64,000 bases of DNA from Escherichia phage 348Ecol098PP, in the sequence record OR062947.1. The stretch is one strand, 5' to 3'. Positions 20,855 through 23,963 of the stretch are shown piece after piece. The number at the start of each line of letters is the position of its first letter. Position 1 is the first letter of the stretch. A program made the position numbers and the translations under genes. The notes under the pieces were generated by a model. It did not search any database. It worked only from the letters and a program-made list of their open reading frames with translations, and was not told the origin of the DNA.

Positions 20855-21217
20855 ATGAAAGCATATCAAATTCTTGAAGGTGCACATAAAGGCACTATTT
20901 ATTTTGAAGACGGTACTCAAGCCCGGATTATTGTCTCTAAGACTTTTAAAGAAGACTCTATTGTAGACCCGGAAATTTTCTATGGTTTGAATGCCCGTGA
21001 AATTGAAATTGAACATCAACCTAAAGTTAAAATTGAAGGTGGTCAACATCTGAACGTTAACGTTCTGCGTCGTGAAACTCTAGAAGATGCAGTTAAGCAT
21101 CCGGAAAAATATCCGCAGCTGACCATCCGTGTATCCGGTTATGCAGTTCGCTTTAACTCTCTGACTCCAGAACAGCAGCGCGACGTTATCGCTCGTACCT
21201 TTACTGAGAGTCTATAA
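20855..21217 (+). CDS. autonomous glycyl radical cofactor (GrcA/YfiD-like)
   Basis: C-terminus [25 protein letters not shown] = glycyl-radical signature of the PFL C-terminus / GrcA. Confidence 0.8.
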
Positions 21218-21441
21218 TGGCTAAATTGATTATAGAAGGGTCTGAAGATGTTTTAAAATGTTTTGCCGCCTGGTTTAGTTGCTCAGGCGAGCAATCATTC
21301 ATTGAAGCATTTAGAACGGGTGATATTACTGGAAAATATCCGTCAACCGATATCACTGTACGCGGATATGGTATTAATGAGCCTATCCAATTGGTCGAAT
21401 ATGACCTTGCCACCGATGAGGAAATTCCTTATGTCGATTGA
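21217..21441 (+). CDS. hypothetical protein
   Basis: 74-aa ORF. Confidence 0.5.
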   Translation: MAKLIIEGSEDVLKCFAAWFSCSGEQSFIEAFRTGDITGKYPSTDITVRGYGINEPIQLVEYDLATDEEIPYVD

Positions 21442-21697
21442 AGACATCAAAGGCTACAAGCCGCATACCGATGATAAAATCAGTAAAGTGAACGCTATTA
21501 AAGACGCAGAAGTCCGTCTTGGATTGTTGTTTGATGCTCTGATTGAAGAAGCATATATCTTGAAAGAAAACGAAACAGAGCAACAAACCAAAGAAGATAT
21601 GGATGCAGTGCAGGCTCTTAAGTATGCTAAGCAACATCTAAAAGAAGCCAGCATGTGGGCATGTCGTGCGGTATTTCGACCTGAGGAAAAATACTAA
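21431..21697 (+). CDS. hypothetical protein
   Basis: Internal ATG (MSIEDIKGY) overlapping upstream stop. Confidence 0.5.
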   Translation: MSIEDIKGYKPHTDDKISKVNAIKDAEVRLGLLFDALIEEAYILKENETEQQTKEDMDAVQALKYAKQHLKEASMWACRAVFRPEEKY

Positions 21698-22440: not shown

Positions 22441-22983
22441 ATGAGAAAAGCACTACTCGCTGGTCTATTTGCTCTTTCGTTATCAGCACATAGCTCCGAG
22501 CATACTTTTAGTAATGTCCAACTCGATAACTTGAATTATGCTTATCAGTTTGGGGAACAGTTTTCTAAGGACGGAAAATTTAAAACGCATGAAAATATGC
22601 ATAAGAAAGGACTTGGATACATAATGGCCGCAATACTATGGCAAGAATCATCTGCCGGTATTAATCTTAAAGATAAGAAAGGTCACCATGCGTATGGAAT
22701 GTTCCAAAACTATCTACCGTCAATGAGGGCAAGAATTAACCAGCTTGGTTATAATATGACTGATGCCCAAATTAAGAAAATGCTATCTAAGCGGTCTAAT
22801 TCAGCCAGATGGGCTTATATCGAATTTTCTTATTGGTTAAATATACATAATGGGGATATAAGAAAAGCTATATCCTCATATAATGCGGGATGGAAGACAA
22901 GTGCTGGAAGTAAATATGCTTCTGAAGTCCTAGAAAAGGCTAATTACCTTAAATCAAATAAACTACTGGAAATAAAAGAATGA
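22441..22983 (+). CDS. secreted lytic transglycosylase (SLT domain)
   Basis: Signal peptide; SLT motifs E-S (WQESS), G-hMQ (YGMFQ), AYNAG-like (SYNAGW). Confidence 0.65.
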   Translation: MRKALLAGLFALSLSAHSSEHTFSNVQLDNLNYAYQFGEQFSKDGKFKTHENMHKKGLGYIMAAILWQESSAGINLKDKKGHHAYGMFQNYLPSMRARINQLGYNMTDAQIKKMLSKRSNSARWAYIEFSYWLNIHNGDIRKAISSYNAGWKTSAGSKYASEVLEKANYLKSNKLLEIKE

Positions 22984-23327
22984 CCAAAATGTTGGCTTTA
23001 ATAGTTGGCTTGGTTTCATTTAACGCTCTTGCTAATACTACATATACTGATGTAACGGAGTATACAAACAGAACGGCGTCTGATTATTGTGGTAAAAGTC
23101 AAGAGTGTAAAGTAGATTTTTCACAAAAATTGTTATATGCGTATAAAGACGGAGAAAAAGATGGGGCGTCTAGTAGGTTCAAGGCGTCTACCTTAATTAA
23201 AAGATACTATAAAAAATGGCAAATATTAGAATGCTCGGTGGCGGAACCTAAAGATAAGGCAGCATGCAATTCTATGGTGGACCGTCTAGTTGACTCTTAT
23301 ACTAGAGGACTTGCAGCAAGTGATTAA
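22980..23327 (+). CDS. secreted/periplasmic hypothetical protein
   Basis: N-terminal signal peptide MTKMLALIVGLVSFNALA. Confidence 0.55.
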   Translation: MTKMLALIVGLVSFNALANTTYTDVTEYTNRTASDYCGKSQECKVDFSQKLLYAYKDGEKDGASSRFKASTLIKRYYKKWQILECSVAEPKDKAACNSMVDRLVDSYTRGLAASD

Positions 23328-23784
23328 AAACTATATCAAGGGCGATATTGTCGCCCTGTTTTCTAAAGGTAATAATATTGCTCATGGGTGTAATTGTTTT
23401 CATACAATGGGCGCTGGTGTGGCAGGACAATTAGCAAAGGCTTATCCAAAAATTCTGGAAGCCGATAAACTTCAAACCGAATTCGGAGACGAGTCTAAAC
23501 TCGGGACTTATTCGGTTTATGAAAAATATTTTAAGACCCATAAAGCTTATTGCTTTAATCTTTATACACAGTTTGAGCCGGGACCTAATTTTGAGTACTC
23601 TGCTTTAATGAATTGTATAATAGAATTAAATGAATTCGGAAAGAATAAGATAACAAAGCCTGTAATTTATATGCCAAGAATTGGTGCAGGTATTGGTGGT
23701 GGAAACTGGGACGTCATCGAAGAGATTTTAGATACGTATTCTACTAAACTAGAAATTGTGATTGTTGATTGGGAACCTAAATGA
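23320..23784 (+). CDS. macro-domain protein (ADP-ribose binding/processing)
   Basis: Macro-domain-like motifs NIAHGCN ... GAGVAGQL; no in-frame ATG, start placed at GTG 23320 after SD (uncertain). Confidence 0.6.
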   Translation: MIKNYIKGDIVALFSKGNNIAHGCNCFHTMGAGVAGQLAKAYPKILEADKLQTEFGDESKLGTYSVYEKYFKTHKAYCFNLYTQFEPGPNFEYSALMNCIIELNEFGKNKITKPVIYMPRIGAGIGGGNWDVIEEILDTYSTKLEIVIVDWEPK

Positions 23785-23963
23785 AATTAACTAAAGAAGA
23801 GAAAGCTAAACTGTTCGAACTTATCCATGACCTATTGGATGAGCAAGCAGCCACCAATGCGTACGATGAATATGCTCCTTTAACAGATGAAGAATATCAA
23901 GCATTGATGGAATCATTTGACAGGAAAGAACAAGAACTCATTGACTACGTGAATTCACTATAA
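23781..23963 (+). CDS. hypothetical acidic protein
   Basis: 60-aa ORF. Confidence 0.45.
   Translation: MKLTKEEKAKLFELIHDLLDEQAATNAYDEYAPLTDEEYQALMESFDRKEQELIDYVNSL

Follow-up and report, generated by a model that had tools for sequence, protein, structure and literature searches.

The open reading frame at 23320–23784 of the window, a 64,000-nt stretch of Escherichia phage 348Ecol098PP (OR062947.1), is the RB69-type orthologue of T4 tk.4 (adfM). Its sequence and modelled structure place the product among stand-alone macrodomains of the ALC1-like/TARG1 class, and alignments assign it to a Gln-type of macrodomain resembling SCO6735. We consider it probable that Tk.4 is an early, orphan-antitoxin-like DNA ADP-ribosyl glycohydrolase that acts against DarT2 with SCO6735-like glutamine chemistry. 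The features relevant to this reading are:

22980–23327, plus strand: vs, the upstream gene, valyl-tRNA synthetase modifier by RB69 annotation and a match to PHROG 1256; its end overlaps the tk.4 start.
23304–23309, plus strand: Shine-Dalgarno-like AGAGGA, 10 nt upstream of the tk.4 GTG, found by reading the sequence.
23320–23784, plus strand: tk.4 (adfM) coding sequence for a macrodomain protein, 154 aa plus a TGA stop, with the boundaries of RB69 NP_861803.1.
23320–23322, plus strand: GTG, the tk.4 initiation codon by comparison, aligned with the T4 ATG; an in-frame TAG lies just upstream in two close relatives.
23383–23397, plus strand: H22-G-C-N25-C26 motif; N25 corresponds to DarG N22 and PhiKZ AdfM N23, and H22 to Poa1p H23.
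23410–23418, plus strand: G31-A32-G33, the GxG loop past the second strand, in the putative ADP-ribose cleft; G33 is invariant.
23557–23571, plus strand: N80-L-Y82-T83-Q84, at the end of strand 75–84; Q84 corresponds to DarG K80, TARG1 K84, PhiKZ AdfM K78 and SCO6735 Gln85.
23674–23709, plus strand: P119-R-I-G-A-G-I-G-G-G-N-W130, by alignment the second glycine-rich (phosphate-binding) loop.
23781–23963, plus strand: tk.2, the downstream gene (60 aa, DUF7438), whose ATG overlaps the tk.4 TGA stop (ATGA).

Many Mosigvirus phages, RB69, AV117 and moha among them, match a 1.2-kb query around the ORF at 99.0–99.3% identity. In the RB69 RefSeq record the identical 465-nt interval is tk.4 (NP_861803.1, "phosphatase; Tk.4; contains A1pp phosphatase motif"), flanked by vs and tk.2 and with the thymidine kinase gene tk two genes downstream; the window protein differs from the RB69 protein by a single substitution, A32G. 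The moha entry QHR68205.1, labelled "macro domain protein", has a 465-nt CDS and GTG start as in the window and encodes an identical protein, and in all three phages this is the same gene with essentially no difference. T4 Tk.4 (NP_049723.1) is 84% identical over its full length (129 of 153 residues, no gaps) and shares the place between vs and tk.2/tk as well as the motifs that include N25 and Q84. The gene order regB-vs.1-vs-tk.4-tk.2-tk, which marks the position of the orthologue group, is kept, although T4 has two further genes, tk.3 and tk.1, in the tk.4–tk interval that are missing from the RB69 type; T4 Tk.4 also has G126-K127 where the window protein has G126-G127. For T2, the Tk.4 protein has been observed in infected cells.

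The earlier note had proposed a macrodomain from the motifs NIAHGCN and GAGVAGQL, both of which are present, at residues 19–25 and 31–38, and this identification is borne out by sequence, predicted fold and existing annotation. The protein scores 28.3 bits against Pfam Macro (PF01661; E 1.8e-6, profile positions 2–117 of 118), above the gathering cutoff of 22 bits, and matches PHROG 335 with E 6e-67. Searches of solved structures with phmmer returned BT1257 (6e-11), yeast Poa1p (1e-8), SCO6735 (7e-5), Thermus aquaticus DarG (1e-3) and TARG1 (1e-3), every one a macrodomain and all of a single class. Fold prediction, the check that the earlier note had suggested, gave an AlphaFold2 model built from a 99-sequence family alignment with a mean pLDDT of 96.1 and a pTM of 0.91; the predicted structure is a three-layer alpha/beta/alpha fold with a central mixed sheet, and in Foldseek comparisons the model lies nearer the ALC1-like/TARG1-DarG-Poa1p class than macrodomains of the MacroD, viral or PARG types. 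The profile matches, the single class of the structural matches, the model and the Foldseek result together argue for a stand-alone ALC1-like/TARG1-class macrodomain, in agreement with the moha label and the A1pp motif of the RB69 annotation. By tblastn, relatives are present in 2800 of 50,697 phage records, in phages of Escherichia, Klebsiella, Salmonella, Pseudomonas, Vibrio, Acinetobacter and Aeromonas that span T4-like, V5-like, Felix-O1-like and PB1-like groups, a distribution that agrees with a survey in which no ADPr-processing domain was more widespread among phages than the macrodomain (PMC9503650). Because the ORF matches Pfam Macro and PHROG 335, has relatives in 2800 phage records and yields a confident model, it is a real gene and no chance ORF.

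The frame of tk.4, translated from 23230, contains a TAG stop at 23287–23289, followed by TTG 23290, TTG 23311 and GTG 23320. Its earliest in-frame ATG (23407) encodes Met30, which lies inside the domain and past the HGCNC motif, so the earlier note was right that no in-frame ATG past the upstream stop could serve a full-length product. That note had offered GTG 23320 or TTG 23311 as the non-ATG start; comparison with relatives favours the first and eliminates the second. The T4 gene begins ATG-ATT-GTA-AAA-TAT-ATC-AAG-GGC and the window gene GTG-ATT-AAA-AAC-TAT-ATC-AAG-GGC, an alignment that makes GTG 23320 the positional homologue of the T4 ATG. Among 48 related viral loci, we counted the 34 in which the match begins at residue 1, and the codon aligned with GTG 23320 is ATG in 30 of these and GTG in four (three Mosigvirus contigs and L013). 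Two loci that encode a 99% identical protein (L004 and L005) read TTG-TAG-CAA-GTG upstream, so that a stop in frame separates both TTGs from the GTG, and in a third (L006) the proximal TTG is replaced by TCG. Taken with the RB69 and moha annotations, these comparisons fix the tk.4 start at GTG 23320, and the same TAG and TCG codons, together with the aligned starts of the relatives, led us to reject TTG 23311 and TTG 23290.

T4 has a GAGGA 12 nt upstream of its ATG, comparable to the AGAGGA 10 nt upstream of the window GTG. The first 8 nt of window tk.4, from the GTG on, are shared with the end of vs (vs stop TAA, 23325–23327), whereas in T4 the overlap is 4 nt. Overlaps such as those at vs/tk.4 and tk.4/tk.2 are typical of translationally coupled T4-type early genes, and tk.4 translation is probably coupled to that of vs. 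A search for an internal promoter with a sigma-70-like scan gave seven sites versus 10.5 in shuffled sequences, fewer than expected. An 8-bp hairpin, AGGGCGAU-AUU-GUCGCCCU (23339–23357, plus strand), covers tk.4 codons 7–13 and was flagged as terminator-like; it is the one such hairpin, it lies inside the tk.4 ORF, and an internal terminator was rejected. The same hairpin is carried by T4 tk.4, and T4 and the window show not one synonymous change over codons 5–13, while later codons differ often. In the predicted RNA fold of the window (z = -2.3), the Shine-Dalgarno AGAGGA pairs with UUUUCU (23359–23364) just after the hairpin, a pairing that could make tk.4 translation dependent on ribosomes finishing vs; the T4 fold at the tk.4 start has no significance (z = -0.4).

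Several neighboring genes merit comment in their own right. The vs.4 homologue (21431–21697, plus strand) matches Pfam Acb2_Tad1_hairpin with 65 bits (E 6.5e-18) and corresponds to the known anti-CBASS sponge Acb2; counting tk.4, the regB-vs-tk early region therefore packs two or more counter-defence genes into 2.5 kb. Tk.2 gives a sub-threshold match to the Acb2/Tad1 hairpin domain (12.7 bits, E 0.15) that is probably due to chance. Vs.1 (22441–22983, plus strand; 180 aa) carries at its N-terminus a segment resembling a signal peptide; its SLT lytic-transglycosylase match is weak at 17.2 bits, below the cutoff of 21.3, and its moha orthologue is mislabelled 'endoribonuclease RegB'. The vs.6 homologue (20855–21217, plus strand) contains a glycine-radical domain (Pfam Gly_radical, 67 bits) and resembles GrcA, a spare part for pyruvate formate-lyase.

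Across 99 family members with identities down to 37%, C26, G33, A35, D49, G62, N80, Y82, Q84, P119, I121, G122 and G124 are invariant. H22, G23 and N25 are each conserved in at least 97 of the 99, C24 in 90, W130 in 98, and T83 in at least 97%. Both glycine-rich loops expected of a macrodomain are found: G31-A-G33, of the GxG type that forms the ADPr-binding loop of macrodomains (PMC9503650), and G122-A-G124-I-G-G-G128, within a segment aligned to PRIGCGLAGG in SCO6735/BT1257 and to PPLGAGNGG in DarG. Profile-profile alignment with T. aquaticus DarG (hhalign, 98.0%) matches N25 to N22 and Q84 to the leading lysine of FPTKK, which is the catalytic K80. In the profile-profile alignment with SCO6735 (98.4%), N80-L-Y-T-Q84 falls on N81-M-I-G-Q85, and Tk.4 has a deletion of 5 residues immediately afterwards. 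A six-sequence MAFFT alignment set the DarG lysine opposite Y82; this register was dropped because it breaks the Y-x-F-N-x-x-T match and because both profile-profile alignments equate Q84 with K80 and Q85. The plain phmmer alignment to BT1257, which is ungapped and off-register in the post-Gln loop, was also set aside. With a glutamine of the SCO6735 kind at the position of the catalytic lysine, Tk.4 is by alignment a Gln-type macrodomain and no lysine-type copy of DarG.

This assignment gives SCO6735 of Streptomyces coelicolor (PDB 5E3B) particular relevance. SCO6735 and BT1257 of Bacteroides (2AFC/2FG1) are ~21–30% identical to Tk.4; both are cellular, whereas Tk.4 is phage-encoded, and the role of SCO6735 relates to stress and antibiotic production. 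Although SCO6735 lacks the catalytic residues of TARG1 and DarG, it removes DarT-made thymidine-ADPr more efficiently than either, and its activity is killed by Q85A or Q85E; the proposed mechanism is water-mediated, with the glutamine positioning the substrate (PMC9411070). The authors of that study link an additional structural element/loop to high DNA activity (PMC9411070), and the post-Gln loop of Tk.4, which may correspond to that element, is 5 residues shorter than that of SCO6735.

DarG itself, compared through the T. aquaticus (5M31/5M3E) and Mycobacterium tuberculosis (5M3I) structures, has a catalytic lysine where Tk.4 has glutamine (for the role of K80, see PMC13309987, PMC9411070), and it has a C-terminal DarT-binding domain and a neighboring darT, neither of which accompanies Tk.4. 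The 154-aa protein matches only positions 4–148 of the 338-position DarG profile and contains no C-terminal DarT-binding domain; it scores 32.4 bits against the DarG equivalog NCBIfam NF048014, for which the cutoff is 250; and the genes adjoining tk.4 are vs and tk.2, with no darT next to it. On these grounds, and for want of the catalytic lysine, Tk.4 was rejected as a DarG. [quoted passage not shown] Independently named AdfM, gp104 strips DarT2 adducts from an oligonucleotide in vitro, in a paper stating that no macrodomain Adf had been reported before (PMC13309987). As gp104 is DarG-like with a lysine and Tk.4 is Gln-type by alignment, the two "AdfM" proteins belong to different subfamilies, and the name now covers two non-orthologous macrodomains, T4 Tk.4 (preprint, November 2025) and PhiKZ gp104 (Cell Rep 2026).

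Evidence that tk.4 protects phage from DarTG2 is genetic and comes from a preprint on T4. When a DarTG2-expressing host was infected with a T4 transposon library (HIDEN-SEQ), tk.4 was the sole significant hit, and T4 became sensitive to DarTG2 once tk.4 was cleanly knocked out; the authors called it adfM, for anti-DarT factor Macrodomain, and enzymatic removal of ADP-ribose from DNA by T4 AdfM was proposed by the authors as a putative activity (bioRxiv 10.1101/2025.11.20.689424). These results fit the observation that T2 and T4 stay resistant to DarTG2 when they lack the NADAR enzyme AdfN; its toxin DarT2 modifies thymidine (PMC11825919). The counter-defence role that the earlier note had raised as one option thus has genetic backing in an 84%-identical orthologue. 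CmdTAC is an unlikely target, because wild-type T4, with tk.4 present, is strongly restricted by it.

The model for Tk.4 action postulates that, once a host DarTG2 system is triggered, DarT2 ADP-ribosylates thymidines in single-stranded phage DNA (TNTC motif), blocking replication. The G31-x-G33 and G122-x-G124...G128 loops would together form the cleft in which the ADP-ribose is bound, and Tk.4 would hydrolyse the thymidine-ribose bond and restore the DNA. Q84, as the essential glutamine, would position substrate and water, probably in the manner of SCO6735 as opposed to the lysine of DarG and TARG1. The gene, its start codon, fold, class, orthology and active-site composition follow from the present analysis, and the anti-DarTG2 phenotype from the work on T4; enzymatic activity on DNA, the glutamine mechanism and transfer of the T4 phenotype to the RB69-type protein are inferred. 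Several observations count against a DNA hydrolase: Tk.4 has no lysine at the position aligned with the catalytic residue of DarG, TARG1 and PhiKZ AdfM; the alignment shows a 5-residue deletion after Q84 relative to SCO6735; and the HxCNC motif is common to Tk.4 and the phosphatase Poa1p, which is structurally nearly as close.

The last of these points bears on an alternative that we regard as improbable, namely that Tk.4 hydrolyses small ADP-ribose derivatives and is no DNA de-ADP-ribosylase, acting either as a Poa1p-like ADP-ribose-1''-phosphate phosphatase or by destroying NAD-derived immune signals or toxic ADPr metabolites. Yeast Poa1p (PDB 6LFQ) is such a phosphatase, with a small-molecule substrate and a role in the metabolism of tRNA-splicing by-products, and Tk.4 resembles it in sequence and in the modelled structure, including the His of the HxCNC motif. 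Human TARG1/OARD1 (PDB 4J5R), by comparison, has a Lys84/Asp125 dyad, of which Tk.4 replaces the lysine with glutamine and presumably has a glycine at the Asp125 position. While the "A1pp phosphatase / Poa1p-like" labels and the shared motif speak for a small-molecule substrate, the labels were carried over from the motif without assays, and the sole known phenotype of the T4 orthologue is DarTG2-specific. Moreover, Poa1p has Ser where the Tk.4 family has the invariant glutamine, and the invariant N-x-Y-T-Q matches DNA-active SCO6735.

It is quite improbable, in our estimation, that Tk.4 protects mainly through stoichiometric binding and inhibition of DarT2, with catalysis dispensable. In vitro, DarT is inhibited even by catalytically dead SCO6735 Q85A (the strongest of the three), DarG K80A and TARG1 K84A (PMC9411070), and AdfA and AdfB inhibit DarT by binding it (PMC13309987, PMC11825919). 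Since SCO6735 Q85A still inhibits DarT by binding, protection from DarTG2 could be partly non-enzymatic. However, the C-terminal DarT-binding domain of DarG has no counterpart in Tk.4, and the Tk.4 cleft residues and Q84 are invariant across phages of Escherichia, Acinetobacter, Vibrio and Pseudomonas, a pattern more in keeping with a conserved substrate than with a variable toxin surface.

The residue modified by Alt and Mod is arginine, and no ALC1-like macrodomain is known to cleave the arginine linkage; both points count against the very improbable reading in which Tk.4 reverses or tunes the phage's own Alt, ModA and ModB ADP-ribosylation of host proteins or RNA. T4-type phages do encode three ADP-ribosyltransferases (PMC9503650), and protein substrates are also used by SCO6735 and TARG1 (PMC9411070), but the family is widespread outside T4-like phages (Felixounavirus, Vequintavirus-like and Pseudomonas PB1-like), tk.4 scored in the DarTG2 condition only of the T4 screen (bioRxiv 10.1101/2025.11.20.689424), and in the local gene order that we examined the alt and mod genes are not adjacent to tk.4. 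The regulator linked to Alt, ModA and ModB that the earlier note had entertained accordingly found nothing in its support.

Returning to Tk.4 as a probable DNA ADP-ribosyl glycohydrolase, the gene matters little as a discovery: it has been annotated in RB69 since the genome was deposited, with its GTG start and macrodomain nature, and its function has been assigned in the T4 orthologue. Our analysis adds a start codon fixed by comparative evidence and the recognition of Tk.4 as a candidate Gln-type enzyme, a distinction relevant to the mechanism that the T4 preprint puts forward and to the sharing of the name AdfM by two subfamilies. We also speculate, while holding it unlikely, that the family (HGCNC...NxYTQ with a short post-Gln loop, in ~2800 phage genomes) is a distinct, lysine-independent third type of nucleic-acid de-ADP-ribosylase, which may accept substrates other than DarT2 thymidine adducts, such as ADP-ribosylated RNA bases or the products of other ADP-ribosylating defences. 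The residual novelty of Tk.4 would thus be mechanistic, residing in its Gln-type chemistry and possibly in a broader substrate range.
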